A stretch of DNA of 64,000 nt from an uncultured Gammaproteobacteria bacterium (GCA_963699925.1 CAVOVT010000007.1:368173-432172); one strand, 5' to 3'; shown: positions 2,118 to 53,247, counted from the stretch's first letter. Translations and numbers: made by a program. The notes: a model not told the origin generated them from the sequence alone.

Positions 2118-4500
2118 ATGCAGCGTCGCTGGTTGCTCGTCGCGACAGCGGTCGTCGCGGTCGCGATCGTCGGCGGCGTAGCGCTCCACGATCGCGGCCG
2201 GAACGACGCGGCCGCCGCGCCGTGGCCCGTGCTCGACCAGTACTGCACGGGTTGCCACAACGACGACGACCTCGCCGGCGGCGTGTCGTTCAAGAAGATC
2301 CGCGGCGCCGACGTCGGCAAGAACGCCAAGGTTTGGGAAGCCGCCGTGCGCAAGCTGCGCGCGGGCCTGATGCCCCCGAAGGACGAGCCCCGCCCCGACC
2401 GCGCCGTGCTCGACTCGACCGCGAGCTGGCTCGAGCACGAGCTCGACACCGCGTGGACGCGCAATCCGAACCCGGGCAATAGGCCTCTCGCTCGCCTGAA
2501 CCGAGCCGAGTACGCGAACGCGGTCCGCGATCTGCTCGACTACGACGCCGACGCGCTCGCGGCAACGCTCCCGGCCGACGTCTCGGTCGGTGGATTCGAC
2601 AACATCGCGGCGGCGCTCAGCGTGTCGCCTGCGCTGCTCGAAGGCTATGCGCTCGCGGCGATGCAGATCAGCCGGCGCGCAGTCGGCGATCTTGCGATGG
2701 GTCACAGCGAGACGCGCTACGCGGCCGCCGCGGGCAGCGCTCAGCAACGGCACGTCGAAGGCCTGCCGCTCGGCACCCGCGGCGGGCTGGCCGTCGAGCA
2801 CAACTTTCCGCTCGATGCCGACTACGAGATCTCGGTGCAGGCGTTTCTGCAAACCGCCGGCTGGGACAATCCGACCGGCGCGCTCGTCTGGTGCGACGGG
2901 CCGCGCGTCGAGCTTGCGTTCAACGGCGTGCCGCTCGCGCTCGACGAGCGTCGCCGTATTCGGCTCCGAGTGCCGGCGGGCACGCAGCGGATCACGGCCG
3001 CACTCGTCGACGTGCAACGCTGCGCGGGCGTGAACGAGCTCTACCTCGGCGAGGTCGCGCTCGGCGGCGCGATCGCGGGGCTCGTGATCGACGGGCCCTA
3101 CAACGCGACGGGCGCCGGGGACACGCCGAGCCGCCGCGCGATCTTCGTCTGCCGGCCGAGCTCGGACGCGGACGATGCGCCGTGCGCCGCGCGCATTCTC
3201 GCCCGTCTCGCGACGCGCGCCTTCCGGCACCCGGTTGCAGCGGGCAGTCCCGAGCTCGATCGCCTGCTCGAGTTCTACCGAAGCGGGCGCGGCGGGAGCG
3301 GCAGTTTCGAAGCCGGCATTCAATACGCGCTGTCGCGCCTGCTCGTCGACCCGAGATTTCTGTATCGATTCGAGCGCGAGCCGGCCGACGTCGCAACCGG
3401 CGCCGTCTATCGGATCTCCGACGTCGAGCTCGCGTCGCGCCTCTCCTTCTTTCTCTGGAGCAGCATTCCGGACGACGAGCTGCTCGAGACGGCCGCGGCC
3501 GATCGGCTGCACGATCCGAGCGTGCTCGCACAACAAGTCGAGCGGATGCTCGCCGCGCCGGAAGCGCAGCGCTTCGTCGTGAACTTCGTCGGCCAGTGGC
3601 TGCGACTCCGAGAGCTCGACGACTTTCCATCGCAAGACCCCGAGTGGGACGGGGATCTGCGCGCCGCGTTTCGGCGCGAGACCGAATTGTTGTTCGCGGA
3701 TGCGCTCCGCCAGAGGCGCGACGTCGTGTCGTCGTTGCTCGACGCCGACTATACGTACGTGAACGAGCGCCTAGCGGGACATTACGGGATCTCCGGCGTG
3801 CACGACAGCTACATGCGCCGCGTCGCGCTGCCGCCGGACAGCCCGCGGCGCGGGCTGCTCGGGCAAGGCAGCCTGCTCACGATCACGTCGGCGCCGAACC
3901 GCACGTCGCCCGTCGCGCGCGGCGCGTGGATCGTGCAGAACCTGCTCGGCGCAGCGGTGCCGAGCCCACCGCCCGGCGCCGCGGCCGATTTGGCCAGGGA
4001 AGCCGTCGCGAAGACGAAGCTCGTCGGCGACACGGTGCGCGAGCGTCTCGAGATGCACCGCGCGAATCCCACGTGCGCGGTGTGTCACGCCATCATGGAT
4101 CCGGTCGGGCTCGCGCTCGAGAACTTCGATCTCGTCGGCCGCTGGCGCGAGCAGGAGGACGGCCACGCGGTGAATGCTGCGACGCAGCTGACCGACGGCA
4201 CGCGAATCGCAGGCGCGACCGATTTGCGGCGCGCGCTGCTGTCGCGCTCCGATGCGTTCGTCGCGGCGCTGACCGAGCGGCTCATGACCTATGCGCTCGG
4301 CCGCGAGCTCGAGTACTACGATCGCCCCGTCGCGCGCCAGGTCGTCCGCGAGGCGACCGGCGCACGGCCGCTCGCTCGCCGCGCTCGTGCAAGCCATCGT
4401 CGCGAGCGATTCGTTCCAGAAGCGTGTGAAAACCGGCGTCGAAACGACGACGGCCGCCCGCAACGACGATCTCGTCGTCCGGCGGGCCGATGCGGAGTAA
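2118..4500 (+). CDS. DUF1592/DUF1588/DUF1587/DUF1585/DUF1595-type protein (planctomycete PSD/PSCyt domain family), copy 1
   Basis: It has an N-terminal anchor MQRRWLLVATAVV and CxxCH motifs CTGCH and CAVCH. It also carries RLSFFLWSSIPDDELL and NPTCAVCHAIMDPVGLALENFD. The C-terminus continues in ORF 4291..4500 (SLAALVQAIVASDSFQKRV), which implies one frame change near 4370. It is a paralogue of 42811..45337. Confidence 0.85.
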
Positions 4501-4518
4501 TCTTCCCGGAGCCGAACC

Positions 4519-5807
4519 ATGCGTTACTTGACCGGCAAGCACCTTTCGCGACGCACGCGTGCTGCGCGGCGCCGGCGTCGCGCTCGCACTTCCGCTGCTC
4601 GAGTCGATGATCCCGGCCGGGATGAGGCGCGCGGCGGCGGCCGGCGCGCCGCGTGCGCGGCTCGCCTGCATCTACATTCCGCACGGCTGCATCATGAATC
4701 GTTGGGTGCCCGCCGCGGCCGGACGCGGGTTCGAGTTCCAGCCGATCCTGAAGTCGCTCGAGCCCTATCGCGACCGGCTCAACATCGTGAGCGGCCTCAA
4801 GCTGCCGTCCGCCTACGTCGGCGAGTCGTCTGCGGCCGCGAATCACGGCCGCTCGTCGCAGTGCTGGCTCACCTGTACGCCGCAGGGCACCGGAGCGACG
4901 CCGAGCTCCGTGGACCAGGTCGCGGCGCGCCGGATCGGCCAGGACACGGCGCTGCCGTCGCTCGAGCTCGCGCTCGAGCCCGGCGCGTCGATCGCGTATC
5001 TGACGCCGCAGACGCCGCTGCCGATGGAGGTGAACCCGCGCGTCGTCTTCGAACGCCTGCTCGGCGACGGCAGCACCCCGGCCGAGCGCGCGGCACGTCA
5101 GCGGCAGCTCTCGAGCCTGCTCGACTCGGTCGCGGGCGACGTCGCGGCGTTGAAGCGCGACCTGCCCGGCGCGGACCGCGCGCGGCTCGACGACTACCTC
5201 GGCGACGTTCGCGAGATCGAGCGCCGGCTCGCGCTCGCCGCGGACTCGCCGCTCGCCTCGATCGACGTTCCCGACAAGCCGAACGGCATCCCGGCCGATT
5301 TCGAGGAGCACGCGATGCTGATGTTCGACCTGCTGGTGCTCGCGTGGCGCGCGGACATCACGCGCGATCGCGACGTTCATGGTCTCGCGCGAGCTCAGCA
5401 ATCGCGTCTATCCGAAGAGCGGCGTGACCGAGGGCTTCCACAACGCATCGCACCATTCCGAGATCCCGGCCAACATCGACCGTCTCGCGAAGCTCAACGA
5501 GTACCACACGCGCACGGCGCTCGCGTACTTCCTGCGCAAGCTCGCCGAGCACGCAGGACGGCGACGGCACGCTGCTCGACCATGCGATCGTCGTGTACGG
5601 CAGCGGCATGGCGCAACCCGAATCAGCACGACCACGACCCGCTGCCGATCCTGCTCGCCGGCGGCGGCGCGGGCCGGCTGCAAGGCGGTCGGCACGTGCG
5701 CGCGGCCGAGGGCACACCGTTCGCGAACCTCCTCGTGACGCGTGCTCGGCAAGCTCGACGTGCCGGTCGAATCGTTCGGCGACAGCACCGGCGCGCTCGA
5801 GATCTGA
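4519..5807 (+). CDS. DUF1552 (HxxSHH) family protein, copy 1, with Tat-like signal
   Basis: It reads MRYLTGKHLSRRT then LRGAGVALALPLLESM, then GFHNASHHSEIP (HxxSHH), then NPNQHDHDPLPILLAGGG, then LGKLDVPVESFGDSTGALEI and a stop. The pieces lie in the frames of ORFs 4519, 4559, 5379 and 5593. There are about 5 frame changes, near 4558, 5365, 5554, 5612 and 5741. Confidence 0.8.
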
Positions 5808-13784: not shown

Positions 13785-15599
13785 ATGAGCGACGCCCCGG
13801 AAAAGAACGCACAGCCGGGGGTCGCCGAGACCGCGCGAGGCAGGGGCCTTCAGCCAGACCCGCATGATCTTCCGCGCGATCTTCGCGTCGCCGGTGGGCC
13901 GGCGACTCATCGTGCTGCTGACGGCGCTGGTGGTCGCGATTCTCGTGACGAGCTACGGGCAGATCATCCTGAACGGCTGGAACCAGCCGTTCTACGACGC
14001 GATCACGCGCCGCGACCTGAACGATTTCCTCTACCAGCTCGGCGTGTACTTCGTGATCGTCGGCGAGCCTCCTCGTTCTCGACGTCGCGCAGCGCTGGCT
14101 CAACGAGACCGTCAAGTTTCGACTTCGCGAGGGTCTGACGCGCGATCTGTTGAAGCTCTGGATGGCGCCGCGTCGCGCGTTCTGGCTCGCCACGAGCGGC
14201 GGTCCGATGGGCGTGAACCCCGACCAGCGCATGACCGAGGATGCGAGACAGGCTCTGCGACCTATCGACCGATCTGTCGATCGGGCTTTTCCGCTCGACG
14301 GTGCTGCTCGTGAGCTTCGCGGGCGTGCTCTGGAAGATCTCCGAAGACTTCACGTTCCGCGTCGGCGGCGTCGACTACGCGGTGCCGGGTTTCATGCTGT
14401 GGGCCGCCATGTCGTATGCGGTGGTCGGCTCGCTTCTGAGCTATTGGGTCGGCCGCAGCCTGGTCACGCGCAACGCCGACCGCTACGCGCGCGAGGCGGA
14501 TCTGCGCTTCGCGCTCGTCCGCATCAACGAGCACGTCGACGGCATCGCGCTCGCGGACAGGCGAAGCCGGACGAGCGCCGGCGCGTCGAAACGCATCTCG
14601 GCAACGTCATGCTCGCGATGCGCCGGCTCGTTCGCGGCCTCACCAATCTCACCTGGGTCACGGCCGGGTTCGGCTGGGTCACGGGCATCGCGCCGATCCT
14701 CGTGGCGGCGCCGCTGTACTTCACCGGCAAGACGTCGTTCGGCGGCATGATGATGGCGGCGGCCGCGTTCACGCAGGCGCAGGGCTCGCTGCGCTGGTTC
14801 GTCGACAACTTCAGCGCGATCGCGGACTGGCGCGCCACGCTGCTGCGCGTGGCGAACTTCCGGTCCGCGCTCGTCGCGACGGAGTCGCAGCCGGCTGTCG
14901 GCAGCCGTATCGACTATGCCGAGGGCCCTCCCGGCGCGATGGTCTTCGAAGAGCTGCAGGTCGAATCCCCGGTCGGCCGCGAGGGCTTCAAGGAGCGGCA
15001 CGTCGTGATTCGCGCCGGCGAGCACACACTGATCTGCGGCGCGCCGGGTGAAGGCAAGACGCCGCTATTCCGCGCGCTCTCGGGACTTTGGCCCTGGGGC
15101 AGCGGCCGGATCGTCCGGCCGCGGGGCGAATCCGTGATGTACGTGCCGCGCGGCACGCCATACCTGCCGCGCGGCACGCTACGCGAAGTGCTCGCCTACC
15201 CGCTCATGACCGACCGCTTCGCCGACCGCGATTACCTGGACGCGCTCGAACGCACCGGCCTCGGGCGATACGCAACGAGTCTCGACGCGCAGCAGCGCTG
15301 GGATCGCGAGCTCCGGGAAGACGAGCAGATGGCGCTCGCCCTCGCCCGAGTCGTCCTCCGGGCTCCGCCCTGGGTCGTGTTCGACGACACTTTCTCGGCG
15401 ATGGAGGACGAGACGCTCGAGCGAGTTGTCGAGATGTTCATGCACGAGCTCACGCGAGACCACGGTCATTTACGTTGGCCGCAGCACGCAGATGCACTTG
15501 CCATTGTTCGCTCGCGTGCTGCACCTGCGAAGAGTACCGAGCGGGCGCAGCATAGAAGAACAATGGGTAACCGAACGGATCCTGCGCAAAGCACGATGA
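13785..15599 (+). CDS. SbmA/BacA-type (ABC_membrane_2) TMD fused to an ABC NBD, YddA/Rv1819c-like, paralogue A; degenerate NBD motifs
   Basis: The main ORF starts at 13864 and reads MIFRAIFASPVGRRLIVLL...NGWNQPFYDAI...GVNPDQRMTED...GAPGEGKTPLFRALSGLWPWGSGRI...LREDEQMALALARVVL...WVVFDDTFSAMEDE...VIYVGRS. A conserved 26-codon ORF starts at 13785, in another frame. There are about 4 frame changes (14065, 14252, 14560, 15455). The stop TGA at 15597-15599 overlaps the next ATG. Confidence 0.8.
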
Positions 15600-17876
15600 G
15601 ACTTCTGCCGACGACGCTCCTTCTGCAGATCGTGCTCGCCATCGCCCTCGCCGGCCAGCCGACGGCCGCGGCCGCGCAGGAGTTCGGGTTCGAGCCGCCG
15701 CCGAGCGCCACGGATCCCGCGTTTCCGGCTGCGCTGCGCGACCTCGCCGAGCGCATCGTGCCGATCTACCAGGACGACGATTCCACTCGCTATCTGGCCA
15801 ATCTCGCGGCGCTGCAGATGACGGCCGGCGACCCGGCAGGCGGCGCACGAGACCCGCATCGCGTTGGACAAGCGGCTGCAGAGCAAGGAGGGGCGATCGC
15901 CGACCGGTCGCGCCGATCGTCTATGCCATCTACGTGCAGGCGCGGGCGACCGAGGCGGAAGAGCACGTGGCGTTCGCGAGCGCCTTCAAGCAGGCGTTCC
16001 GAGCGACGTTCGAACCCCTCGACGACCTTGCCGTCTACGACCTCGAGAGCTCGTTCCTCTCACCGATCGAGCCGCTGCGCGAAGCCGTCCAGCACGCGCT
16101 CGACCAGCAAGGCGACAAGAAGGAGATCGCGCTCGAGCCGGCGCTCGATCTCGTGCGGGCGTGGGCCGGATTCGAGGCGTACCGCAGCATCGAAGGCCTC
16201 GTTCGACCGCTGTTCGCTGCGGAGAACGACAAGCGCTACGTCGTCGAAGAGGTCGCGATCCCGGTTGCAGAAGGCGCGAGCGTCGCCGCCACGTTGGTGC
16301 GTCCGCGCGGCGCCACGGAGGCCGGCAAGGTCGCGACGCTGCTCGAGTTCACGCTCGATCGCTCGAGCCGGGACGCGCGAGAGTCCGCGGCGCACGGCTA
16401 TGCGAGCGTGCTCGCGCTGGCGCGCATTGCGGGCGATCCGCCCGCCCGTCCTCGGGCGCCGTTCGAGTCCGATGGCGACGACGCGCGCGCGGTCATCGAC
16501 TGGATTGCGAAGCAGCCGTGGAGCGACGGCCGCGTAGGCATGCAAGGCACGGGCTACGGCGGCTTCGTCGCCTGGTCGGCGGCGAAGCGGCTGCCGCCGG
16601 CGTTGAAAGCCATCGCGACGTCCGATCCGATGGCGCCCGGCATCGACGTGCCGATGCGAGGCCGGATCGTGCTGAGCTCGGCCTATCGCTGGGTCTACGA
16701 AATGCTGCCGCCGCCCGGGCAAGATCATGCCGTACGACGCGGCGCACTGGCGCAACTTCGACGACGACTGGTACCGGTCCGGCCGGTCGTACCGCGAATT
16801 CGCCGACGCTGCCGGGCCCGGGCAGCGCGGTTTTCCGCCGCTGGTTGAATCATCCGAGCTACGACCGGTTCTGGCAGAAGTGGCTGCCGTTCGGTGCGGA
16901 GTTCGCGAAGATCGACATACCGGTGCTCACGGTCACCGGCTATTACTCGGCCGGTCGAGACCGCCGCGCTCTACTACTTCACGGAGCACCATCAACACGA
17001 CTCCGAACGCCGATCACGCGTTGCTGATCGGCCCGTTCGACGAGCAGAGCGTCGAAAAGGGCGTCACCGAGCCCGCGGTTCGCGGCTCGACGCCGGACGC
17101 CGTGGCGCGCATCGACCCGAACGCCGCGCGCTACGAATGGTTCGCTCACGCGCTCGGCGGCGCGGAGCGGCCGGAGCTCTTCAGCGGCAACGTCAACTAC
17201 GAGCTCGCCGGCGCGAACGAATGGCGCCACGAGGCCTCGCTCGAGGCGCTCGAGCAGAAGCGCACGCGTTTCTATCTCGAGGCGTCGCCGGGCGGGACGG
17301 CCAACACGCTGGCCGCGAAGAAGCGCCGGTCCCCGACGTCTCTCACCGCGACCCTCGAGTCTTCGCGACCGCCGCGACGCCGAGTGGCGGCCCTCGCGCG
17401 AGCTCGTGCTCGACGTCTTGCCGGCGCGCGACGGCACGGCACTATTCATGACGGAGCCCTTCTCCACCCCGGTCGACATCGCAGGCCGGCTCAGCGGCGT
17501 TCTGGATTTCACGATCAACAAGCACGACGTGGACTTGGTGCTGATGCTCTACGAGCTGCGTTCGACCGGCGAATACGTGAAGCTCTTCGACCCCGCCTAC
17601 GCGTTTCGTGCGAGCTACGCCAAGGACCGCGTCCACCGTCATCTGCTGGTCGCGGGCGTGCGGCAGCAGCTGCCGTTTCAGAGCGAGAAGATGGTCGGGC
17701 GCCAGACTCGCAGGCCGGCAGCCGGTTGGTGCTCGCGCTCGGGATCAACAAGCGCGCGGACAGCAGTCAACTACGGCACCGGCAAAGATGTCAGCGAGGA
17801 ATCGGTCGGCGACGCGCGTGCCCCGGTGCGGATCCGCTGGCACGACGGCAGCTTCATCGAGATTCCGTCGCCCTAA
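15596..17876 (+). CDS. CocE/NonD (peptidase S15, X-Pro dipeptidyl-peptidase-like) family protein with signal peptide; nucleophile Ser position reads Gly
   Basis: It reads MRLLPTTLLLQIVLAIALAGQPTAAAAQ, then VATLLEFTLDRS, DWIAKQPWSDGRVGMQGTGYGGFVAWSAA and IPVLTVTGYYSAG. The C-terminus is NYGTGKDVSEESVGDARAPVRIRWHDGSFIEIPSP. About 9 frame changes are needed. Confidence 0.7.
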
Positions 17877-18106
17877 CCCCTGCGCACGTTTTTCACGATT
17901 TTGAGCTGCGATCTCAAGAGTGAGGCGCCGGCGTCGTAGCGCGTCTCGAGAGTGTCGTCGCGTTGTCGCCCCACGGGGCGCCGCGGTGCGTACGCGCCGA
18001 CCAAGAAGCACAACGCGGGCATCGCTTGGGCCGCGGTCACCGCCTGCAGATCTCGAAGCAGCTTCGCGGTCTCTCTGGCTGCCTCCGCCTGAAACTCGCC
18101 TTGCAT
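17873..18106 (-). CDS. possible small hypothetical protein (77 aa)
   Basis: This ORF-track entry lies in the convergent gap between two genes. Third-position GC looks high when read by hand. I recognise no family. Confidence 0.25.
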   Translation of the reverse strand: MQGEFQAEAARETAKLLRDLQAVTAAQAMPALCFLVGAYAPRRPVGRQRDDTLETRYDAGASLLRSQLKIVKNVRRG

Positions 18107-18215
18107 GTGCGCGCCCTCTCGTCGATCGGATTCCGCCTCCGCTGCAAAACCCGTGCCTCGAGGCCTCGTGCTTGTACGGCCGATGGATCCTTCCTAGACC
18201 CGAGCCGCCGCGCTT

Positions 18216-20629
18216 TTAGCCGGGGAATTCCGCCGCGTCGACGCGCCACTGCACGCGAGTTTCGTCTTCGAACCGCACGTGCACGCGCATGACGTTCGGG
18301 TCGACGAGCCTCAGGCTATAGCCCGCGTAATCGCGGACGAGGAACTGCCGCCCTCCCCACGTCCAGGGATGGTCGCCCGGGACGTAGACGAACACGTCGT
18401 GCTCGCTCGCTTGCGGACCGTCGAAATTCCGCTCAAGGCGCCCTCGCTCCATTCCAGCGCACGTCCTCGATCTCGATCGCGCCCTGCGTGACGTGCCGGC
18501 TCGTCGAGAGGAGCTGCGGCGCGCCCGTCGCCGCATGCAGCGCGAGCAGCGTGACGCTGCCGGGCTCGATCGTCACGGCGAGCTCGTTCGTGACCTCTCC
18601 GAAAAACCGCTGTCGCCAGAAATCGAAGCGAGATAGGTCTTGGCCGGATCCAGCCCGAGCCGGCTCAACGGGAAGCGGCGCTCGACCGCGGCACCGAGGT
18701 CGGGATTGAAGAGACGCGACGACCGACCACGAGGCGAACGGCCGTTCGACACGCATCACGAACGTCGTCGGGAATGTCGGCATCGAAGAGATCGACCGGA
18801 ATGGCGGCCTCGCCGTACGGACGGCGTGATCTTTTTCAGGATTTCGAGCTTGGCCGGGTCGAGGTCGACGAGCCGGTCGCCCGAGATCATGTTGCCGCCG
18901 GAGAGCGCGATGAGCGTCGCGGCCGCTTGCGCCTGCTGCGCGGTCAGCAAGTCGAGGCACACGTGGTCGACATCATTGACCCACGTGCGCCGATGAAAGT
19001 AGTAGCGCTTCGCGGCGGCCGCCGCGCTGCACGCGGGGTCCTCGAAGTACTGCTTCCACGCCGCCGCGGCGTAGCCGTAGTTGATGTCGGCCTCGACGCG
19101 CATGCTGTCGATGAGGCCCACCGTGGTGTTCGCCGGGGCCGCAATCGAGGATGTGGCAGTCGTCGCCGGCCGCGGCGCGCATGATCTCGAGGCCCCGCCG
19201 ATAGACCTCGGCGGACGACAGCGTCGGATCTCGGTAGCGCTCCGCCGCGAGGATCGACCACGCCATGAAGTCGATCTTGATCATCTCGTAGCCCCAGCGG
19301 CGCGCGATCGTCTCGAAGAGGTCGCGCAACCAATCCGCGGCCTCGGGATGCGTGATGTCGAGGCAGTAGCGCTTCACGACCTCGCGCGAGCGCCGCCGGC
19401 GAATTCTCGTTCTCCCAGTTGCCGATGCGTTGCAGCGAGCCGTCGCGGCGGCGCACGAGCCACTCGGGATGCCGCCGGAACACTTCGCTCTGCTCGGAGA
19501 TGACGTAGGGCGCGATCCAAAGTCCCGGTTTGAATCCGTGCGCCTTGATCCTCTCCGCGAGCCATTTCATCCCGTGAGGGAATCGCTCGTTGCCTTCCCA
19601 GTCGCCGAGCGAGCGTTGGTAGCCGTCGTCGATCTGCACGTACTCGAGCCCGAACGGCCGGAGGTGTCTGCGGCGAATGCGGTGTTCCGCAAGACCTCGT
19701 CCTCGGAGACTTCGGCGAGCGTGTAGAACCAGCTGCACCAACCGTTGACGATGGAGCGCGTGCGCGCGTTTTGCGCCGTTCCCACGGCGTCGGCATACTC
19801 CTCGAGCGCCGCGTAAGGAGTCGCGGCGACGTTCAGCATGAAGCGGTTAGAGCCGATCGATTGTCCCGGGGCGCAGCGTGATCGGCGGCGCATACACGGA
19901 TTCACCCAAGAACGAGATCTCGCCCTCGCCGGTGCTCGCGACGAGAACGAGACCGAGCGCGTGCGTGTTCTCGAGATACCCGAGAACCACGCCTTCGCGG
20001 TCGTAGCCGCTGAACAGGCCGACGTTCCACCAGCTCGCGACGGTCGGGGTGGCGCGGCGCGATCGATTCGTTCACGAGCCGCGCGCCCTTGATCGGGCGG
20101 ACGCAGGCTCGCGCGGCGGATCGGCCGCAAACGCGTGGACTCGGCCCGCGTCGTAGAACATCTCGCCGTTCGTGATGCACGCCGCGACGCCCGGGACGCG
20201 CAGCGTGCCGCCTTCGTTCGCGACGACGCGCAGCGGTTCGAGACTCGTCGACGACGATGTCGCGCGACGAGACGTTCGTGCAGTGCGGCTCGATCGTCAC
20301 CATCGGCCGACGGTCGTACACGACGACTTCGACGCCGAGGTCGAGAAGCTTGTCGGGGATCGCGGCAGACCACGCTCATGCGCTGCCCGGAGCCCAAGTC
20401 GGTCGCTGAACGTAGACGATGGCGACGGAGTGCTCGCGGCCGAGGCGACGCGGTGGACTGTTTGCCGACTTCGGTGTTCGCGCAAGCGACGCCGCCAGTG
20501 AGAAACGGCGTGCCGTCGCCGCGGAGGATCGAGAACGTTCCGGTCCGCGTATCGAACGAGACGGCGAAGTGATCGCTCGCGATCGTTCAACACCGCGCCC
20601 GGAGATTCGTCTCGAGCGGACGGCTTCAT
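18216..20629 (-). CDS. clan GH-D alpha-galactosidase-like glycoside hydrolase (GH36-like)
   Basis: Fragments lie across at least 7 frames. They include WCSWFYTLAEVSEDEVL, YVQIDDGYQRSLGDWEGNERFPHGMKWLAERIKAHGFKPGLWIAPY, WGYEMIKIDFMAWS and LSGGNMISGDRLVDLD. The C-terminus is FVYVPGDHPWTWGGRQFLVRDYAGYSLRLV. The start MKPSARDE at 20629 is inferred. Confidence 0.6.
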
Positions 20630-22450
20630 GGCCCGAACGCAGGCTCCGTTCGGTTGCGCGCGTCTCTCTTCTCGCGTCTCTCGCCCTTGGAGCCTCGTCA
20701 AATGCAGCACGCGCGTGAACAGCGGCATGTGCGCCTGCGTGCTGCGCCCGATGTGAATGATGGTCGTCCGCGTGAGCGTGCTTCGTGAACAGCGAACGAT
20801 CGACCCGCCTGAGCGTCTCGTCCTCCATCGAGGAGAACGTGTCGTCGAACACGACCCAGAGCGGAGCGTGCAACACCACACGCGCGAGCGCCAACGCCAT
20901 CTGCTCGTCCTCGCTGAGCTCGCGATCCCAGCGCTTGTCGGCGTCGAGGCTCTTCACGTACCGCCTGAGGCCCATGCGCTCGAGCGCCTGCGCGTAAGCC
21001 CGGTCTGCGAAGCGGTCGGTGAGCGACGGGTACGCGAGCGCTTCGCGCAGCGTGCCGCGCGGTAGGTACGGCGTGCCGCGCGGCACATACATCACCGATT
21101 CGCCGCGCGGCCGGACGATGCGGCCGCTGCCCCAGGGCCAGAGCCCCGACAGCGCGCGGAAGAGCGGCGTCTTCCCTCGACCGGCGCTCCGCAGATCAGC
21201 ACGTGCTGGCCGGCCCGGATCACGACGTGCCGCTCTTGCGAGCGCCACGCGCCCGACGGGCGAATCGACTTGGAGCTCTTCGAACACCATCTCGCCCGGC
21301 GCGCCTTCGGCGTACTCGATCTCGGCTCGCGCCGTTGTGCTGCGGTTCGCTGACGAGTCAGCGCCGCCCTGAAGTTCGCCACGCGCAGCAGCGTGGCGCG
21401 CCAATCCGCGATCGCACTGAAGTTGTCGACGAACCAGTGCAGCGAGCCCTGCGCCTGCGTGAACGCGGCCGCCGCCATCATCATGCCGCCGAAGCTGGTC
21501 TTGCTCGCTGAAATACAGCGGCGCGGCGATCAGGATCGGCGCGATGCCCGTGATCCAGCCGAATCCGGCCGTCACCCAAGTGAGATTGGTGAGCGCCGCG
21601 AACGAGCCGGCGCATCGCGATCATGACGTTGCCGAGATGCATTTCGGCGCGGCGGCGCTCGTCGGCCTCGCCCTGCCGCGAGCGCGATGCCGTCGACGTG
21701 CTCGTTGATGTCGACGAGCGCGAAGCGCAGGTCGGCCTCGCGCGCGTAGCGGTCGGCGTTGAGCCGGACAGGCTCCGGCCCACCACGTAGCTCAGCAGCG
21801 AGCCCACCACCGCATACGAGATCGCGGCCCACAGCATGAAGCCCGGCACGGCGTACTCGACTCCGCCGACGCTGGAACGTGAAGTCCTCGCGAAATCGTC
21901 CAGAGCACGCCCGCGAAGCTCACGAACAGCACGCGTCGAACGGAAGAGCCCGATCGAGAGATCGGTCGAGATGTCGCAGAGCTTGGTCGCGTCGTCGGTC
22001 ATGCGTTGATCGGGGTTCACGCCGATCGCGACCGCCGTTGGTCGCGAGCCAGAACGCGCGGCGCGGCAGCCATCCAGAGCGCGAGCAGATCGCGCGTCAG
22101 ACCCTCGCGCAGCCGATAACTGGATCGTCTCGTTGAGCCAGCGCTGCGCGACGTCGAGAACGAGCAGGCTGCCGACGATCGCGAAGTACACGCCGAGCTG
22201 GTAGAGGAACGCGTTCAGGTCGCGGCGCGTGATCGCGTCGTAGAACGGCTGGTTCCAGCGGTTCAGGATGATCTGCCCATACGTCGTGACGAGGATCGCG
22301 ACCGTCATCGCAGCGAGCAGCAGGATCAGCCGGCGCCCGACCGGCGACGCGAAGATCGCGCGGTAGATCATCGCGGGCTTGGTGGAGTGCGCCGGCTCGC
22401 GCCGCTTCGTTGACGCCGGCCGTGTTCCTTTGGGTAGCTGTCGCGTTCAT
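20626..22450 (-). CDS. SbmA/BacA-type TMD-NBD transporter, paralogue B; same degenerate NBD motifs
   Basis: The main ORF starts at 22371 and reads MIYRAIFASPVGRRLILLL...NRWNQPFYDAI...GVNPDQRMTDD...GKTPLFRALSGLWPWGSGRI...LSEDEQMALALARVVL...WVVFDDTFSSMEDE...IIHIGRS. The conserved upstream ATG at 22450 overlaps the GH15 stop. There are at least 7 frame changes. The 3' end is inferred as a TGA overlapping the GH36-like ATG, by analogy with paralogue A. Confidence 0.7.
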
Positions 22451-23805
22451 AGGAAGACCACCGCCCGTCGGGCCGTCACGCAAGAGATGAAGCTCGGCAT
22501 AGCTCCACGCGAGATGCTTCGCCGACGTCTGTTCGCCGGTGCGTTGATCGAATTGTTCCGACAGGTCGCCGCTCGAGGGCGTGAATGCGCGAACGGTCGC
22601 GAGGAATCCGTCGCCGCGCGCGATCCACGGTGCGCTTTCGTCGCTGCCGGCTTCCGGCGCGTCCGCCGCGAGGAAGCAGAACTCCGCGGCACCGAGCGTC
22701 GAGAAGTAGTACGCGCCGCCGGAATAGTAGACGTCGTCCGCGAAGCGGCCCATCGGCGGGCGCGCGCTCGGGCGGCCGGCCGTGATTGATCGGATAGAGC
22801 CGGTCGAACAGGTCCTCGAGCCGGTCGAGCGTCGCGTGCATCCGAGGATCGCGCGCGGAATGCACTTCGCTGCCGTCACGCGGAGTGGAGGACGCTCAGG
22901 ATCACCGAGATGTCGAGCATTTTCGTCGAAGACGCGCCGGGCGGCATGATGCGTGATCGGTAATAGCCTGCATCGTCGAGCCAGAACCGATCGAGCCAAT
23001 CGAGCAACGCGCTGCGCGTCGTCGCGCAACGCGGCTGCGCCGTCGACCTCGCCGCGAGCTCGGAGCCAGTCGGCGCCGAGGCGGAGCGCCGCGGCCGCGA
23101 CGCGCAGCGTGAAGTAGTGGTGGCCGAGCTCCTCCTCCCAGATGTCGAACGACGGCTCGCGCCAACGGGCCGCGATGAACGCGAGGTCGATGCGCAGCAG
23201 ACGCTCCGCGTCGGCCAGCGTCGCCGCACTGACGGCGCCGCGAGCTGCTCGGCGGCGAGCGTGCGCAACCAGCGCAGCACGGCGAGCGCGCGCAACGCGA
23301 ACCGTCGTGCTGCGGCCGGGTCCAGCGCAGCATGTCGAGCGTGCCGTCCGGGTTCACGCGCGTGTCGGCGAAGACCGCGTCTCCCGAAACGGCGGCGAGC
23401 TCTTCGCCGCGGAGGTATTGCACGAACTCCGGAGTGACATTCTCGCGCCACTGCGCCGACGCGGTCAGCGCGCGCCCGTCGAGCATCTCTGAGCGACAAG
23501 CTGAAGCGCACGAAATCGGCGAAGTGCGTGCAGCGCTTCCGCGCCGAGGTCTCCGGTCTCGTAGAGCAGACGCACGGCGTCGATGACGATCGCGGAATCG
23601 CGGAACCAGTGAAAGAAGTAGTCGGGGTCCGGGTCGTAGGACCGCGAGCACGGGCGACGCGACGACCGAGCCCGCGACCGGCCTCACGGTTTGCCCGAAG
23701 CCCGGCCGCTCCTTGACGATGTCGCACGCGGAGACGCTCTTCAGCATCGCGGCCACGGCGTGCCGGTACTCGCGGGCGAGCCACTGCTCGAGACGTCTCC
23801 GTCAC
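22447..23805 (-). CDS. glycoside hydrolase family 15 (glucoamylase-like)
   Basis: It has LEQWLAREYRHAVAAMLKSVS...PGFGQTVRPVAGSVVASP, DPDYFFHWFRDSAIVIDAV, RWTRPQHDG and SFDIWEEELGHHYFT. It also has GRFADDVYYSGGAYYFSTLGAAEF, and HLAWSYAE followed, after a 1-nt correction near 22493, by FISCVTARRAVVFL and a stop. The GTG start at 23805 is inferred from a GTGA overlap with the upstream gene. There are several frame changes. Confidence 0.65.
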
Positions 23806-25230
23806 TGTCGGTGCAGCTTCCAACGCGGGGCTCGAGAAACCGAGCCGGCGAAGCCCGGCTTGCACTTCCGGCACCGCCATGAAGAGCTTCCACAACAGTC
23901 CCGTCCGGTGGTTCTCGATCATGAGGATGATCGGGCCCTGATCGATGGCCAGAAAGGTGTCCGCGTACCAGCTTTGGCTCTCGCAGAAAGCGTCGACGAA
24001 GCCGAGCTCGCGCCAAAGACGCTTGCCGTGGCGCGTCGAGAAAATGCCGGAGCACGGCCGATCGACCTCGGCGCGCGCATACGGCAAGCTCGCGAGCGCA
24101 GCCGTCGGGCTGATCGTGCCGTTGTCGTTGTCGGGAGCGTGGGCGGAGTACCCGGACGGATCGTCGCTCGCGGTCAGCCCCCAGCACGATTCGCCGTAGC
24201 CTTCGAATCGGCCGGGATTCGCGACGCAATGGGCGCGGTTGATCCGCACGTGGCGCACGTTCTGCTCCCAGTAGTCCGCGTACCGGTCCACGAGCCCGCG
24301 CGGATCGAGGCCGCAAAACGAGTAGTGCGCGAAGAACAGCGGGCCGCCGTACGGCATGCCGAGCGGCAGCTCGATGCCATACCAGGATTTGCCGTTGCGA
24401 AATCCGGGGCCGCTCGCGAAACCGCGGTGGTAGACCACGGGCTCGATCGCGTGACGCGGCGAGCCGAGCCGCCAGCACGTATGTGATCAGGCACTCGTTC
24501 CAGCCGCGAATCGCATGATTCATGGCCCAGCCGTGCGTCGGGCTCCAATGCCAGTAGAGCACCTCTTGCCCGCCTCGCGTGAACCAGCTCCACTCCACCT
24601 CGTCCCATAGGCTCGAGATTCGCGATCGCGCGCCGACTTCTTCCGGTGTGTCTCGGTCGAAATACTCGCGCGCGCACAGCAGGCCCATCATCAGAAACGA
24701 CGTCTCGACGAGATCCGCCGCATCGTCCTTGCGCGAAGAACGGAATGGTTTCGCCCGTGCGGCCGTTCATGAAGTGCGGATAGGCGCCGTGATAGCGGCG
24801 CGCACGCACGAGCAGATCGAGCATGCGGCCGAGGCGCTCGAGCGCCGCGCCGCGAGTCACCCAGCCGCGCTCCACGGCGACGATCAGCGCCATGACCCCG
24901 AAGCCCGAGCCGCCGATCGTGATCCATCGCGTCGACCTGCGCACGCTTGCCGGACGTGCGCCGGTCGAACGCGAGACCGCTGTCGGGATGCGCGCCTTCC
25001 CAGAAATAGCGGAAGGTCTGCCGCTGCACGGCCTCGAGCAGCTCTTCGTCGGGTAACGACGCGAGCGCAACCGGATCTGCATCCGCGACTCGCGTGCTCG
25101 GCGACGCCGCGCGCGTTACGCGCGCCGTCGACGTGACCCGCGTCTTCGCCGCGCCCTTTCGCGTGTCCCTACGTTTCCCGCCCGACGCGGCCGGCCGGGA
25201 TCCTTTCGACTTCGGCAAGTGACGCCTCAC
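23802..25230 (-). CDS. GH144-like (DUF3131, 'glucoamylase family protein') endo-beta-1,2-glucanase candidate
   Basis: It has QRQTFRYFWEGAHPDSGLAFDR, ITIGGSGFGVMALIVAVERGWVTR and HGAYPHFMNGRTGE. It also has WSPTHGWAMNHAIRGWNECLITYVLAA, PLFFAHYSFCGLDPRGL, YGESCWGLTASDDPSGY and AIDQGPIILMIENHRTGLLW. No signal peptide is evident. There are several frame changes, and the 3' end is approximate. Confidence 0.7.
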
Positions 25231-25289
25231 TCCTGACGCGCGTGCCGCGCCCGCTGTAGGCGCCCTGCGAGTTTTGCTGCGGATGCGTC

Positions 25290-27464
25290 ATGATGGTCTC
25301 GGTGAGCAGGATCGACAAGCTGATCGGGCAAATGACGCTGGCGGAGAAGCTCGGTCAACTCACGATGACCGCCGCGGGCTACGCCGTGACGGGGCCCGTG
25401 ATCGCCGGCGATTCCACCGACTCGATCCGCAACGGGACGCATCGGCAACCTGCTCAACCTCGTCGGCGCGCAGTCACGTTCACGACATGCAGCGAATCGC
25501 CGTCGAGGAATCGCGGCTCGGCATTCCGCTCTTGATCGGCTTGGACGTGATCCACGGCCATCGCACGATCTTTCCGGTGCCGCTCGCCGAGGCCGCGACG
25601 TTCGATCCGCGGATCTGGGAGCGCACGGCACGCGAAGCCGCCCGAGAGACGGCGGCCGACGGCCTCGCGATGACGTTCGCGCCGATGCTGGACGTCTCGC
25701 GCGATCCGCGCTGGGGCCGAACCGTCGAAGGGCCGGGCGAGGATCCGTGGCTCGCCGCGCAGATCGCGCGCGCGAAAGTCCGCGGCTTTCAGGGCGCCGA
25801 CCTCGCCTCCGCCGAGTCGGTCGCCGCGACCGCCAAGCACTTCTGCGCGTACGGGCCCGTGACGGCCGGGCGCGACTACGCGTCCGGTCGACGTCTCCGA
25901 GCGACGCTGCGCGAGGTGCATCTGCCGGCCTTCGCGGCGGCAGTCGCCGCCGGCGTTGCCGCGATCATGCCGGCGTTCACCGATCTCGCCGGGCATCCCG
26001 ATGACGGCGCACAAGCGCGCTGCTGCGCGATTACCTGCGCGGCGGAGCTCGGCTTCGACGGCGTGATCGTCAGCGACTACAACGCGATCCGCGAGCTCAT
26101 CCATCACGGCGTGGCGGCGCGACATCGTCGACGCGGCCGTGCTGGCGCTCAAGGCCGGCGTGGACATCGACATGATGGCCGGAGGCGTATCGCAGAGGGC
26201 CTGCCCGTGGCGCTCGAGCGCGGCCTCGTCACGATCGACGAGATCGACGAGTGCGTGCGCCGGGTGCTGCGGCTCAAGGAGCGTCTCGGGCTGTTCGACG
26301 ACCCGTACCGGCGCGGAGCGAGCGCGGAGACGTCCGACGCCGATCGCCGCTCGCCGGCGCCTCGCGCGCGACGTCGGCGCGAAGTCGCTCGTGCTCGCTG
26401 AAGAACGCCGGCGACGCGCTGCCGATTGCGGCGCGCAGCGCGCGGGTCTGCGTGATCGGCCCGCTCGCCGACGCGTGGCGCGAGATGCGCGGTCCGTGGG
26501 CCGCCGCGGGCTACCACGAGCCGAGCGTGACCGTGCTCGCCGGCCTGCGCGAGGCGCTGCCGGATGCGGCGATCACGCACGCCGAAGGCGTGACGATCGA
26601 AGGCGACGACTCGTCGCAGCGTCGCGGCGGCCGTCGAGCTCGCGAGCGGCGCGGACGTCGTCGTGCTTTGCGTCGGCGAAGCGGCCGACATGAGCGGCGA
26701 GGCCGCGTCGCGCGCGTACCCCGAGCTGCCCGGCGAGCAACGCGCGCTCGCCGAGGCGGTGCTCGAGCGCGCGCGCGGCGCGGGAGCTCCGGTCGTCGTC
26801 GTGCTCTTCTGCGGCCGGCCGCTGATCGTTCCGTGGCTCGCGGAGCGAGCCGACGCGCTGCTCGTCGCGTGGTTCCCGGGGCGGGAAGCGGGCAACGCCA
26901 TCGCCGACGTGCTGACGGGCCGCGTGTCGCCGTCGCGGCCGAACGCCGATCACTTGGCCGCGCGCGCTCGGGCAGATTCCGCTGTTCTATGGCCAGCGAT
27001 CCGGCGGCCGGCCCGAAAACCCCGCCGGACCGGTTCACGAGCAAGTATCTCGACTCGCCGAGCTCGCCGCTGTTTCCGTTCGGCTTCGGCCTCACGTACG
27101 GCCGTTTTTCGTATGCCGAACCTGCGCGTCGAGCCCGGAGATCGTGACCGCGTCGGACGTGATCGAGGTCAGCGTCGACGTCACGAACGAGGGAGCGCGC
27201 GCCGCCGAGGAAACCGTATTCCTATTCGTCCGCGATCGCGTCGCGAGCGTCGCGCGGCCGCTGCTCGAGCTCAAAGACGTCGCGAAGATCGCTTTGGAGC
27301 CCGGCGCGACGGGCACCGCGCGACTGCAGGTGCAGGCGACGGATTTGCGTTTCTTGGGTCTCGACCTCACGCCCGTGCTCGAAGCGGGCGAGATCGAGAT
27401 TCTCGTCGGGCCCTGCGCGGACTCGTCGCAGCTCTTGGCGGCGCGGCTGATCGTCCGGGCGTAA
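25290..27464 (+). CDS. GH3 beta-glucosidase (BglX-like), no obvious signal peptide
   Basis: It has MMVSVSRIDKLIGQMTLAEKLGQL, RLGIPLLIGLDVIHGHRT, FAPMLDVSRDPRWGRTVEGPGEDP and AATAKHFCAYG. It also has GFDGVIVSDYNAI, and the C-terminus is EIEILVGPCADSSQLLAARLIVRA. It is divergent from the GH144 operon. There are many frame changes. Confidence 0.8.
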
Positions 27465-27528: not shown

Positions 27529-29142
27529 TCAGCGGCGCGCGATCGTGAGCGGCCGAGGGTTGTCGGTGCCGCCCGCGGGATCGGCCTTGTCGCGCTGTCG
27601 CCGGTCGGCCTCCAACGCAAACTCCGGCCGCCCGATCGATCCTCGATCGCGCCCTCGGCTCTTGGCGATGTACAGCGCCGAATCGGCGATACGCAGCAGC
27701 GACACGGAATCCGCGCCCATCGACGAGTCCGCGATGCCGAAGCTCGCGGTGAACGCCGGCTGGCCGTTCTGCGCGAGCTCTGCCGCGAGGCGCGCGCGCA
27801 CCCGGTCGACCCAGTCTGCGGCCTGCAGCGCCAACGTGCCCACGAGCAGCACGACGAACTCCTCTCCGCCCCAGCGTGCGGCCCGATCCTCGGCTCGAAG
27901 ACTCGCTTTCAACAGCTCCCCGAAACGGCGCAGAGCTTGATCTCCGCTTGGGTGGCCGAACGTGTCGTTCAAGCGCTTGAAGTGATCGAGATCCGCGACG
28001 ATCACCGCGAACTCGACTCCGCGACGAGCGACGTCGTGCATCTCGATCTCGAGCGCGCGGCGATTCAGCAGGCCCGTCAGACTGTCCGTCATGGCCTGCA
28101 GCTGGGTGCGCTGGAAGGCCCGAATCGTTCCGGTCCGAGTGGCCGCGGCGAACGCGAGCGTCTCGAGGTTCGCGACCACGACGTCGCGAAACGGCACGTC
28201 GCTCGGGCTCGTCGCGTGCAGCACGCCGAGGGACTTACCCATGAAGCTCAGCGGCACGCAGGTCGCGGCGAGCGGCACGCTCTGACGACCATGCAGATGC
28301 GGACAGACGTTCAACTGCTCGCTGTTCGAATAGGTAACCGTGCTGCCGCGGCGCACCGCGACGCAGCTCGACGGCGCGTGCACTCCGCAGCCCGGCGAGC
28401 CGGCCGTTGGGTGCAGCGCGACCCGGGTCAACTCCGCGGCGCCGGCGTCGGACAGCAGCAGCTCCATCGGCTGGTCCTGCGAAATCGCTTGCATTGCACG
28501 CGCGGCCACCGCGGCGACGGCCTTCTCCGATTCGGCAAGCTCGAATGCCTCGGCGACCTCTTTGCTGAAGCGCTCGCGCTCGGCGTCGGTGCGCATTCGC
28601 TCCAGCGTCTGCGTGAGACTCGCCGCAAGCGTGTTCAACGACGCGCCGATCATGCCGATGTCGTGGCCGGCCGGTTGGTCGTAGCGCACGTCGAGATCGC
28701 CCGCCGCGAGCGCACGCGCGACGGTCGAAACGTCGCCGACCGAACGGCGAATCGAGCGCGCGAGCGCCCAAGCCAGCAGCAGGCCGAAGGCGAAGATCAA
28801 GGCCCCGCCCCAAGCGATCAGCCCTTCGGCGCGCTCGCCGGCGGCATCCGCGGCGACTTTCGCCTTTGCGCCGCGCAGCTCGTCATCGGCGCGCTTCGGG
28901 TCCGGAGGGTACGGCCGGGCTTCGGCGGAACGAACCGGCGCATTCGTCGCGGCCCGCTGGACGTCGAGCGCCTCACGTGCGATCAGAAAGAACGCACCGA
29001 TGCCGGCGGCAAAAACGCCGTACATGAGCCCCACTCGGAGCAGCAACGACGTGCGATCGAGCAGGCGTGACCAGCGCTGCGGCTTCGGCGCGGTCGGGTC
29101 GGTAGGCTGCAGGTCCGCCGTCATCGGCCGGCGCAATCTCAA
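27529..29142 (-). CDS. membrane diguanylate cyclase (HAMP, GAF-like sensor, GGDEF with GGEEF active site and RxxD I-site)
   Basis: The 537-aa ORF is intact. It has two hydrophobic segments, a HAMP-like segment (ARSIRRSVGDVSTVARALAAGDLDV), LTGLLNRRAL, DLDHFKRLNDTFGH and RAEDRAARWGGEEF. Confidence 0.9.
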   Translation of the reverse strand: MRLRRPMTADLQPTDPTAPKPQRWSRLLDRTSLLLRVGLMYGVFAAGIGAFFLIAREALDVQRAATNAPVRSAEARPYPPDPKRADDELRGAKAKVAADAAGERAEGLIAWGGALIFAFGLLLAWALARSIRRSVGDVSTVARALAAGDLDVRYDQPAGHDIGMIGASLNTLAASLTQTLERMRTDAERERFSKEVAEAFELAESEKAVAAVAARAMQAISQDQPMELLLSDAGAAELTRVALHPTAGSPGCGVHAPSSCVAVRRGSTVTYSNSEQLNVCPHLHGRQSVPLAATCVPLSFMGKSLGVLHATSPSDVPFRDVVVANLETLAFAAATRTGTIRAFQRTQLQAMTDSLTGLLNRRALEIEMHDVARRGVEFAVIVADLDHFKRLNDTFGHPSGDQALRRFGELLKASLRAEDRAARWGGEEFVVLLVGTLALQAADWVDRVRARLAAELAQNGQPAFTASFGIADSSMGADSVSLLRIADSALYIAKSRGRDRGSIGRPEFALEADRRQRDKADPAGGTDNPRPLTIARR

Positions 29143-53122: not shown

Positions 53123-53247
53123 GCCTTGCTCCGCCCATCGCGGCACGGCCCGCGACGAAGTTGAGGCCGGAGTATGGGGCGCCGGCGTTCGCCGGCCGAG
53201 ATCGCGAATCGCGACATCGCGCGCAGAAATGCGGCAGCGCGGCGCGC

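Follow-up and report, generated by a model that had tools for sequence, protein, structure and literature searches.

A conserved proteobacterial gene cluster joins GH144 and GH15 glycosidases to an Rv1819c/BacA-type ABC transporter and suggests a cytoplasmic route of beta-1,2-glucan breakdown

The stretch of DNA analysed here, which we call the window, comprises 64,000 nucleotides from an uncultured Gammaproteobacteria bacterium (GCA_963699925.1, CAVOVT010000007.1:368173-432172; G+C 68%), and carries a cluster of glycoside hydrolase (GH) and ATP-binding cassette (ABC) transporter genes that we read, with moderate confidence, as an intact proteobacterial locus for cytoplasmic breakdown of beta-1,2-glucan fed by an ABC importer of the Rv1819c/BacA type. 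Four genes follow one another on the minus strand: a GH144 endo-beta-1,2-glucanase homologue (23802..25230; PF10091); a GH15 protein consisting of the catalytic domain only, a predicted alpha-glucoside hydrolase (22447..23805; PF00723); ABC-B, an Rv1819c/BacA-type half-transporter with a transmembrane domain (TMD) and a nucleotide-binding domain (NBD) (20626..22450; identified by Pfam and by structure 6TQE); and a GH36-like glycosidase of clan GH-D, a lineage-specific accessory (18216..20629; PF02065 and a GH31 TIM barrel). A BglX-like GH3 beta-glucosidase gene diverges from this operon on the plus strand (25290..27464; tblastn with the GH3 protein of the relative L003 covers 25290-27461, in several frames), and the starts of GH3 and GH144 are separated by 59 bp (25231..25289), read directly in the sequence. 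The junctions likewise can be read: GTGA at GH144/GH15, and ATGA at GH15/ABC-B and ABC-B/GH36. The GH144 stop and the GH36 ATG at 20629 come into frame solely after a 1-bp correction; the start of the GH36-like gene is uncertain, as this ATG needs frame correction and homology begins at ~20586, and its stop is a TAA at 18216.

An earlier note, made from this DNA alone, had placed five genes here, with coordinates for all but the transporter, in this order and on these strands, with the GTGA and ATGA overlaps and a divergent GH3; L003 proteins mapped onto the window reproduce the layout, and the overlaps and the divergence are as claimed apart from the two frame ends just mentioned. Its range, 18216-27464, is right for the five genes but omits two adjoining ones on the plus strand: ABC-A, a second copy of the half-transporter (13785..15599, ATG at 13785), which forms an inverted repeat with ABC-B, and a gene for a secreted protein of CocE/NonD (S15) fold without a catalytic triad (15596..17876; Peptidase_S15 and PepX_C domains in the orthologue). 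These two genes are joined by an ATGA overlap, and the S15-fold gene converges on the GH36-like gene; the window holds two transporter genes, ABC-B inside the glycosidase operon and ABC-A beside it with the S15-fold gene. A consensus scan found no sigma-70-like match in the 59-bp intergenic region, and a promoter and terminator scan of 13.4-27.8 kb gave no signal above shuffled expectation. The core unit is GH3/GH144-GH15-ABC, to which some loci add the S15-fold pseudo-hydrolase; GH36 is a local addition.

The reading frames of the cluster are all broken in the window, as the earlier note had implied: none of its five genes has a long open reading frame (ORF), and stop-to-stop segments and third-position GC switch frame every 100-500 bp. 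We aligned each of the seven genes (13.4 kb) with six to eight relatives and found 83 window-unique indels of a length not divisible by three, nearly all of a single base (GH3 17, GH144 5, GH15 10, ABC-B 17, ABC-A 6); the same class numbers at most 1 in total across five Illumina-assembled relatives and 16 in L001, a long-read metagenome-assembled genome (MAG). When these indels are removed by projection on the L003 frame, seven full-length proteins result, with 0 internal stops and 67-83% identity to L003 (GH3 81%, ABC-B 80%). Of 80 window-only inserted bases, 61 lie outside homopolymers; unique deletion events number 12. Unique substitutions are not in excess (169 in the window vs 98-386 in seven relatives), and the lineage-unique substitutions divide among codon positions as 0.31/0.32/0.37 in the window vs 0.28-0.38/0.21-0.30/0.39-0.46 in relatives, a weak test when taken alone. 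A three-phase hidden Markov model on codon-position GC finds that the frame switches 5-11 times per 2 kb, which is dense, between ~4.3 and 36 kb, and normally at 36-64 kb; an unrelated stretch of 1.2 kb (29.3-30.5 kb), aligned with an Illumina relative, contains 30 gap positions.

Because the damage is regional (~4-36 kb) and spans unrelated genes, we conclude that the frameshifts are, on the evidence of these alignments, sequencing or assembly errors, and that the cluster is intact. If the frameshifts were real, the cluster would be a set of decaying pseudogenes, a reading that draws on the contrast between 13.8-27.5 kb, where every gene is frameshifted, and 36-64 kb, which is largely intact. 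Natural gene decay, however, leans towards deletions, whereas here insertions far outnumber them and fall mostly outside homopolymers; no nonsense codon is left once the indels are removed; substitutions are not in excess; the indel-rich region takes in unrelated genes; and long-read MAG relatives such as L001 share the error type at lower density. We regard decay as highly improbable. The window from 4300 to 36000 resembles a poorly polished or low-coverage long-read assembly, and gene calls there need frame correction.

The GH family assignments made earlier hold for the window and for L003. Pfam, run on stop-masked translations of the three minus-strand frames of 18100-25300, returned PF10091 (6.5e-62), PF00723 (2.7e-27), PF06472 with PF00005, and PF02065 (Melibiase; 3.9e-12) from the raw frames. 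Intact reference orthologues were taken from L003, an Illumina MAG (GH3, 720 amino acids (aa); GH144, 428; GH15, ~450; ABC, 608; CocE/NonD-family protein, 753; GH36-like, ~785), and match more strongly: three domains for GH3, PF10091 at 2.5e-77, GH15 at 2.5e-46, ABC_membrane_2, SbmA_BacA and ABC_tran for the transporter, and Melibiase/GH31 for the GH36-like protein.

The corrected window GH144 aligns with CpSGL (5GZH) at 4.9e-143 and keeps all six of D135, D139, E142, E211, F268 and Y330 (CpSGL numbering), residues that are important for activity and for the SGL clan (PMC12102758). In PMC7922503 and PMC12102758, beta-1,2-glucan is the only GH144 substrate reported, and the family also holds an exo-acting, sophorose-releasing enzyme (PMC11842490). 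By family and by conserved residues, the window protein should be an endo-beta-1,2-glucanase. GH15 is a protein of 450 aa whose homology starts ~10 residues past the N-terminus and whose closest solved relatives are fungal glucoamylases (~5e-36). It keeps the motifs WFRDSA, RPQHDG, DIWEEE, GRY and LSEQFD, which include the acid E179 and the base E400 (A. awamori numbering), and comparison with 1AGM finds the equivalents of E179/E180, E400, R54/D55, W120 and R305 conserved; without the N-terminal beta-sandwich domain typical of bacterial GH15, it is an architectural variant that is still a member of the family. Three domains, Glyco_hydro_3, Glyco_hydro_3_C and Fn3-like, make up the GH3 orthologue, which scores 651.4 bits against the NCBIfam BglX model NF011678 (cutoff 666); its alignment begins at profile position 38, so that the signal peptide of periplasmic BglX is missing. 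The corrected window GH3 starts MMVSVSRIDK. The GH36-like protein matches the Thermotoga GH36 alpha-galactosidase 1ZY9 at 8e-45, scores 51.8 bits against PF02065 (cutoff 27) and has a GH31 TIM barrel; we take its KIDF and MRIEAD segments to be the clan GH-D nucleophile and acid/base motifs.

N-terminal inspection after frame correction bears out the claim that GH144 and GH3 lack signal peptides, and finds none on GH15 or GH36. In L003 and S. terrae, only a few residues precede the homologous catalytic domain of each glycosidase, and the window GH144 has a long, basic N-terminus without a hydrophobic core. A hydrophobic 11-mer upstream of the start of homology occurs in 13 of 13 Bacteroidota GH144 proteins, but in 3 of 96 cluster GH144 proteins, 0 of 18 GH15 and 0 of 3 GH36; the three GH144 cases are doubtful and resemble read-through of non-coding DNA. 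The glycosidases of the cluster, GH3 included, are predicted to be cytoplasmic.

The transporter had been described as BacA-type, which is correct for its membrane domain and incomplete for the protein as a whole. ABC-B combines ABC_membrane_2 (PF06472) and SbmA_BacA (PF05992, 68.6 bits) with ABC_tran (PF00005), and is a complete ABC half-transporter with its ATPase. Its best solved relative is Rv1819c (6TQE; 1e-47 over residues 78-560, TMD and NBD), whereas it reaches 48.5 bits against the NCBIfam SbmA equivalog (cutoff 492); by this score and by its ATPase domain, it is no orthologue of SbmA/BacA. The Walker A motif reads GxPGEGKT, and the signature and Walker B motifs are present; Walker B is LDD or FDD, with Asp for the catalytic Glu, in 117 of 120 close homologues. 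Databases label the homologues as a vitamin B12/bleomycin/antimicrobial peptide transport system. Of the homologues of the peptide importers SbmA and BacA, the cobalamin transporter Rv1819c is the closest. The known cargoes of the group are peptides, bleomycin and cobalamin; no binding protein is needed for the uptake of large hydrophilic substrates, and the natural role of SbmA is stated as not established (PMC8442886).

The two copies in the window are inverted and share 84.7% nucleotide and 80.7% protein identity; ABC-B is closest to a copy preceding GH36 (L084), and ABC-A to copies preceding the S15-fold gene. Two transporter copies likewise flank GH144-GH15 in the relatives L015, L044, L053, L102 and L160. 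In Alphaproteobacteria, two ABC genes stand in tandem: the Walker B of one is the canonical IDE, while both Walker A and Walker B are degenerate in the other (L055).

The S15-fold protein is widespread and is annotated as a CocE/NonD hydrolase, a family with the motif GxSYxG (PMC6113382), and its orthologue does carry the Peptidase_S15 and PepX_C domains (TIGR00976, 128 bits; cutoff 66). Where true hydrolases read GxSWG, WAD and GPWxH, however, the window protein reads GTGYGG, GYYSAG and GPFDE; aligned with two proteins annotated as CocE/NonD hydrolases, the cluster proteins have GxGYGG, YSAG and GPFDE, with Asp replaced by Ala or Gln and His by Glu or Asp. The nucleophile position is Gly in 56 of 90 proteins across loci and Ser in 5; among 93 database homologues with a locatable motif, it is Gly in 69, Arg in 22 and Ser in 1. 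Despite its annotation, the protein is, judged by these replacements, not a serine hydrolase. As Ser, Asp and His are all replaced, we ruled out a periplasmic esterase stripping succinyl or acetyl groups from osmoregulated periplasmic glucans (OPGs), and likewise a peptidase.

Secretion of the protein is indicated by its signal peptide (MRLLPTTLLLQIVLAIALAGQPTAAAAQE), which is of the classical type and has its cleavage site at AxA-Q. The protein also has an extra N-terminal helical domain of ~200 aa. An AlphaFold2 model made from a shallow alignment has a mean predicted local distance difference test (pLDDT) score of 57, and the helical domain alone is confident (pLDDT 80-96). Foldseek placed cocaine esterase and alpha-amino-acid ester hydrolase at the top of 29 matches with E <= 0.001 (TM 0.19-0.37), and gave no information on the helical domain. 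Because the protein is secreted, triad-less and translationally coupled to the transporter, it fits best as a cargo-binding or docking partner of the ABC protein.

Conservation of the gene order, whose absence the earlier note had named as grounds for refuting its hypothesis, was assessed in two samples: 80 species-representative loci obtained by a scan with the longest window GH144 fragment (67 non-Bacteroidota, 13 Bacteroidota), and 80 metagenome loci chosen by ABC. The closest GH144 loci belong to uncultured Gammaproteobacteria (82-88% identity over the query fragment), the next to Solimonas, Nevskia, Hydrocarboniphaga and Steroidobacteraceae, and then to Alphaproteobacteria and Bacteroidota. 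In the 67 non-Bacteroidota loci, GH144 is accompanied by GH15 in 62, by ABC in 63, by the S15-fold gene in 38 and by GH36 in 7; GH144, GH15 and ABC stand together in 61, and in 53 GH3 is present as well. None of the 13 Bacteroidota loci has GH15 or ABC. GH36 is found in just 7 of the 80 GH144 loci, the closest ones. GH15 is a core member of the cluster, and GH36 is an add-on of the closest relatives.

The layout varies with the group: GH3/GH144-GH15-ABC-S15fold in Nevskiales-like genomes and GH3/ABC-GH144-GH15-S15fold in Steroidobacteraceae. Relatives that have GH36 show GH144-GH15-ABC-S15fold-GH36 (L001, L003, L004, L011) or GH144-GH15-ABC-GH36 (L005, L008), and GH3/ABC alone occurs in L152, L153 and L157. 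The full GH3/GH144-GH15-ABC-S15fold cluster also lies on a megaplasmid of Variovorax paradoxus SPNA7 (NZ_CP138514, 590.8-599.8 kb; L164), and the complete cluster in the long contigs L161 and L162. Variovorax paradoxus SPNA7 is a cultured legume-root betaproteobacterium, and its PLSDB record has no annotation for the cluster stretch. Close relatives share no synteny outside the cluster; a conserved outer-membrane receptor was considered and rejected, as a TonB-dependent receptor stands beside GH3 in L003 and L005 only.

The sample chosen by ABC contains the S15-fold gene in 55, GH15 in 40 and GH144 in 35 of its 80 loci. In 14 of these loci a cytoplasmic protein of ~1000 aa adjoins ABC (L095 4915-7884; L104 497-3475; L141 4772-7900; L102 4337-7267; 10 more loci). 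It has an F5/8-type-C (CBM32-like) domain and an RSWIRDGAMM motif, is encoded directly upstream of ABC-S15fold where the junction is visible, follows zwf in several loci, and takes the place of GH144-GH15 in L102. It has a weak match to the GH15-type model TIGR01577 (1e-8 to 3e-7) and no sequence match among solved structures, and hhalign detected no relationship to the cluster GH15; it may represent a new glycosidase family. Because ABC loci carry GH144-GH15, GH3 alone or this CBM32 protein, the constant companions of the transporter are carbohydrate enzymes.

Genes related to cyclic di-GMP (GGDEF or GGDEF-EAL response regulators) repeatedly flank the cluster (window 27532-29142, minus strand; L152 9899-16635; L157 9774-16504; L150 12463-14472). 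The GH3/ABC-only loci also encode a hybrid sensor kinase; with its Reg_prop/Y_Y_Y domains, it is of a type that Bacteroides uses to sense glycans. Elsewhere in the window, 2312-5792 and 43032-46649 share 65-70% nucleotide identity over ~3 kb, in pieces, which suggests a paralogous gene block.

A link to glucan synthesis had been drawn from the presence of opgGH in the same window. The genes are there: opgG (MdoG domain, 1.4e-118) and an opgH-like gene of glycosyltransferase family 2 (GT2) lie at 52.8-57.2 kb; their connection with the cluster is circumstantial, at a distance of ~28 kb and without synteny in relatives. An extra opgG-like GH186 gene lies within the cluster of L002 (16251-17785; with signal peptide) and of L161 (16160-17512), in the latter 7 bp upstream of the GH36-like gene and matching E. 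coli OpgG at 1e-128. The window OpgG, compared with the OpgG-like and XccOpgD-like types as a pointer to the kind of OPG made, scores 1e-62 vs 8e-58, which does not separate the two, and has a frameshift near residue 436. The window ORF at 52802-54694 (minus strand) joins an OpgH-like GT2 domain to a C-terminal DUF2845; it is probably two genes, or an artefact of frame or start choice.

We propose that the cluster works as follows. Periplasmic gluco-oligosaccharides or small cyclic glucans, whether OPG-type glucans made by the cell itself or glucans of outside origin, would cross the inner membrane through the exporter-fold Rv1819c/BacA-type transporter without a classical solute-binding protein; the secreted, triad-less CocE/NonD-fold protein, which is coupled to the transporter in most Gammaproteobacteria, would capture the cargo or hand it over rather than hydrolyse it. 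In the cytoplasm, GH144 would cut the beta-1,2 chain internally and GH3 would trim beta-linked glucose from the non-reducing ends; GH15, as an inverting exo-alpha-glucosidase, would strip alpha-linked glucose that blocks GH3, for example at the alpha-1,6 ring closure of cyclic glucans of the Xanthomonas/Rhodobacter type; and the GH36-like enzyme would be an accessory of this lineage only. A cytoplasmic salvage or turnover pathway fed by an atypical importer was the hypothesis of the earlier note, and its idea of digestion in the cytoplasm behind a BacA-type transporter is still the best reading of the families, the missing signal peptides and the conserved order; what has changed is the type of transporter, the standing of GH15 as a core member, and the addition of a periplasmic partner and a second transporter copy, both of which had been omitted.

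The role given to GH15 draws on known enzymology. According to a methods passage of the XccOpgD preprint, treatment of alpha-1,6-cyclised glucohexadecaose with GH3 BtBGL and GH144 CpSGL yields 11 glucose molecules and leaves a glucopentaose that is not degraded further (10.1101/2023.11.26.568766). GH15 enzymes cleave alpha-glucosidic bonds at non-reducing ends, alpha-1,6 bonds included, and the family has an alpha-1,6-specific glucodextranase and an isomaltose glucohydrolase (PMC12446779). The cluster GH15 probably removes alpha-linked glucose that lies beyond the reach of GH144 and GH3; the near-obligatory pairing of GH144 with GH15 would be explained because such an exo-alpha-glucosidase would let GH3 proceed. 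A more specific account would make the Rv1819c/BacA-type clade a dedicated importer of periplasmic (cyclic) beta-1,2-glucan with a dead CocE/NonD-fold capture partner, the pathway a proteobacterial cytoplasmic recycling of OPGs or cyclic glucans, and GH15 the missing alpha-1,6 ring-closure hydrolase; we advance it tentatively, as possible rather than probable.

Several observations weigh against the proposed import and breakdown of beta-1,2-glucan. The fold of the transporter is that of an exporter, and inward transport is argued by analogy with Rv1819c, SbmA and BacA; its LDD Walker B could mean that ATP is hydrolysed slowly or in an unusual way. An alpha-1,6 activity of GH15 is deduced, and the closest solved relatives of this protein are alpha-1,4-preferring fungal glucoamylases. 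Of the 80 ABC-chosen loci, 26 have the ABC and S15-fold genes but neither GH144 nor GH15 within 8 kb, and alphaproteobacterial clusters are without the S15-fold gene; opgGH is not syntenic with the cluster in relatives; and no outer-membrane transporter or regulator is conserved across the cluster loci.

The cargo might be some other mixed alpha/beta glucoside, or an environmental glycoconjugate, with the specificity of GH144 shifted. GH144 has an exo-acting, sophorose-releasing member (PMC11842490), GH15, the GH36-like enzyme and the CBM32-containing protein point to further linkages, and conserved linkage to opg or cgs genes is missing. The window GH144, however, matches the founding endo-beta-1,2-glucanase at 4.9e-143 with all known key residues kept, beta-1,2-glucan is the sole substrate given for the family in PMC7922503 and PMC12102758, and L002 and L161 have an opgG-like gene within the cluster; we consider a different substrate unlikely. 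A separate question is whether the transporter belongs to the glycosidases at all, since ABC and the S15-fold protein could form a module for uptake of peptides or antimicrobials, on the pattern of SbmA/BacA or of protease-associated import systems, that merely lies beside glycosidases whose substrate comes by another way. The substrates of SbmA, BacA and Rv1819c (peptides, bleomycin and cobalamin; PMC8442886), the database names of the homologues, a partner drawn from a peptidase/esterase family and the 26 of 80 loci in which the pair stands without GH144/GH15 all agree with such a module. Against it, the partner has lost Ser, Asp and His and is not a peptidase; the transporter gene sits among glycosidase genes and overlaps GH15 by ATGA; GH144 and GH15 are linked to it in 61 of 67 species loci, and elsewhere it has GH3 alone or the CBM32 protein by zwf; and no other sugar transporter was found in any of these clusters. 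We consider a peptide module quite doubtful.

Transport in the opposite direction would fit a locus for biosynthesis or remodelling, in which cytoplasmic GH144 and GH15 transglycosylate or trim nascent glucan and ABC exports it, as with cyclic glucan synthase and NdvA/Cgt. The exporter fold and the ABCD relatives of the transporter agree with export, cyclic glucan synthase has a GH144-related domain that acts as a transglycosylase (PMC11842490), and the GH15-like dextran dextrinase is a transglucosylase (PMC12446779). Yet no glycosyltransferase lies in or beside the cluster at any locus examined; a BglX-like exo-beta-glucosidase is a conserved member; GH15 keeps both glutamates of an inverting hydrolase; and NdvA-type exporters are distant (7ZNU, 7.5e-8 over the NBD region). 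We hold synthesis to be very unlikely, and favour import followed by breakdown.

If import and breakdown are borne out, the cluster points to a way of taking up and reusing periplasmic or cyclic glucans that has not been described before, with two unusual parts: an exporter-fold ABC protein that apparently imports a glycan, and a partner protein that appears to be a dead enzyme. A full-text literature search found no paper linking GH144 with GH15 or with a BacA-type transporter, no description of an OPG turnover pathway, and no catabolic or recycling route for beta-1,2-glucans in Proteobacteria. The cluster is conserved in many soil Proteobacteria, and beta-1,2-glucans (OPGs and cyclic glucans), the enzymology of whose synthesis is now emerging, are needed for osmoadaptation, virulence and symbiosis. 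The linkage of the transporter to a beta-1,2-glucan hydrolase gives a concrete cargo hypothesis for a transporter group in which the role of SbmA is open (PMC8442886); the more specific account, if true, would give this transporter superfamily its first natural glycan cargo, and would also be the first case of an exporter-fold importer that has an accessory binding protein. GH15 is a candidate enzyme for the limit glucopentaose of the Xanthomonas virulence glucan, which resists GH144 and GH3, and culturable hosts carry the cluster (Variovorax paradoxus, Hydrocarboniphaga effusa, Solimonas terrae, Inquilinus).

The cluster has features in common with several known systems and differs from each of them. 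The CpSGL and GH3 genes of Chitinophaga and other Bacteroidota are alike in GH144 family and in having GH3 as a neighbour; the Bacteroidota GH144 proteins, however, have signal sequences (13 of 13) and no GH15 or BacA-type ABC neighbour (0 of 13), whereas GH144 here is predicted to be cytoplasmic and is linked to both. The sophoro-oligosaccharide system of Listeria also uses a phosphorylase. Sophoro-oligosaccharide systems reviewed by the Nakajima group (the Listeria innocua beta-glucosidase and the sgl clusters) resemble our proposal in import followed by a cytoplasmic GH3 finish, and binding subunits specific for beta-1,2-gluco-oligosaccharides occur in sgl gene clusters (PMC11842490); they have a classical importer with a dedicated binding protein, in contrast to the exporter-fold ABC without a classical binding protein, the putative cytoplasmic hydrolytic endo-enzyme and GH15 found here. 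The utilisation of cycloisomaltooligosaccharides (PMC13084667) offers a parallel in which a cyclic glucan is imported whole by an ABC transporter and degraded in the cytoplasm, but with an alpha-1,6 linkage, a solute-binding-protein-dependent importer and other enzymes.

Rv1819c, SbmA and BacA share the TMD family of the transporter (PF06472, PF05992), and the similarity to Rv1819c covers TMD and NBD; SbmA and BacA are without an NBD, whereas the cluster transporter has one, with an LDD Walker B, and is accompanied by a periplasmic pseudo-hydrolase and by glycosidase neighbours; of the characterised members, none is known to have either. The partner protein has the fold and the domain order (Peptidase_S15, PepX_C) of CocE/NonD (S15) hydrolases, but its triad is replaced, it has the extra ~200-aa N-terminal helical domain, and it is secreted and coupled to an ABC transporter. 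Known beta-1,2-glucan utilisation loci, finally, combine a specific endo-enzyme or phosphorylase with a beta-glucosidase and a dedicated uptake system; the cluster has an endo-enzyme homologue and a beta-glucosidase but neither SusCD nor a binding-protein-dependent ABC transporter, and another type of transporter stands in their place.

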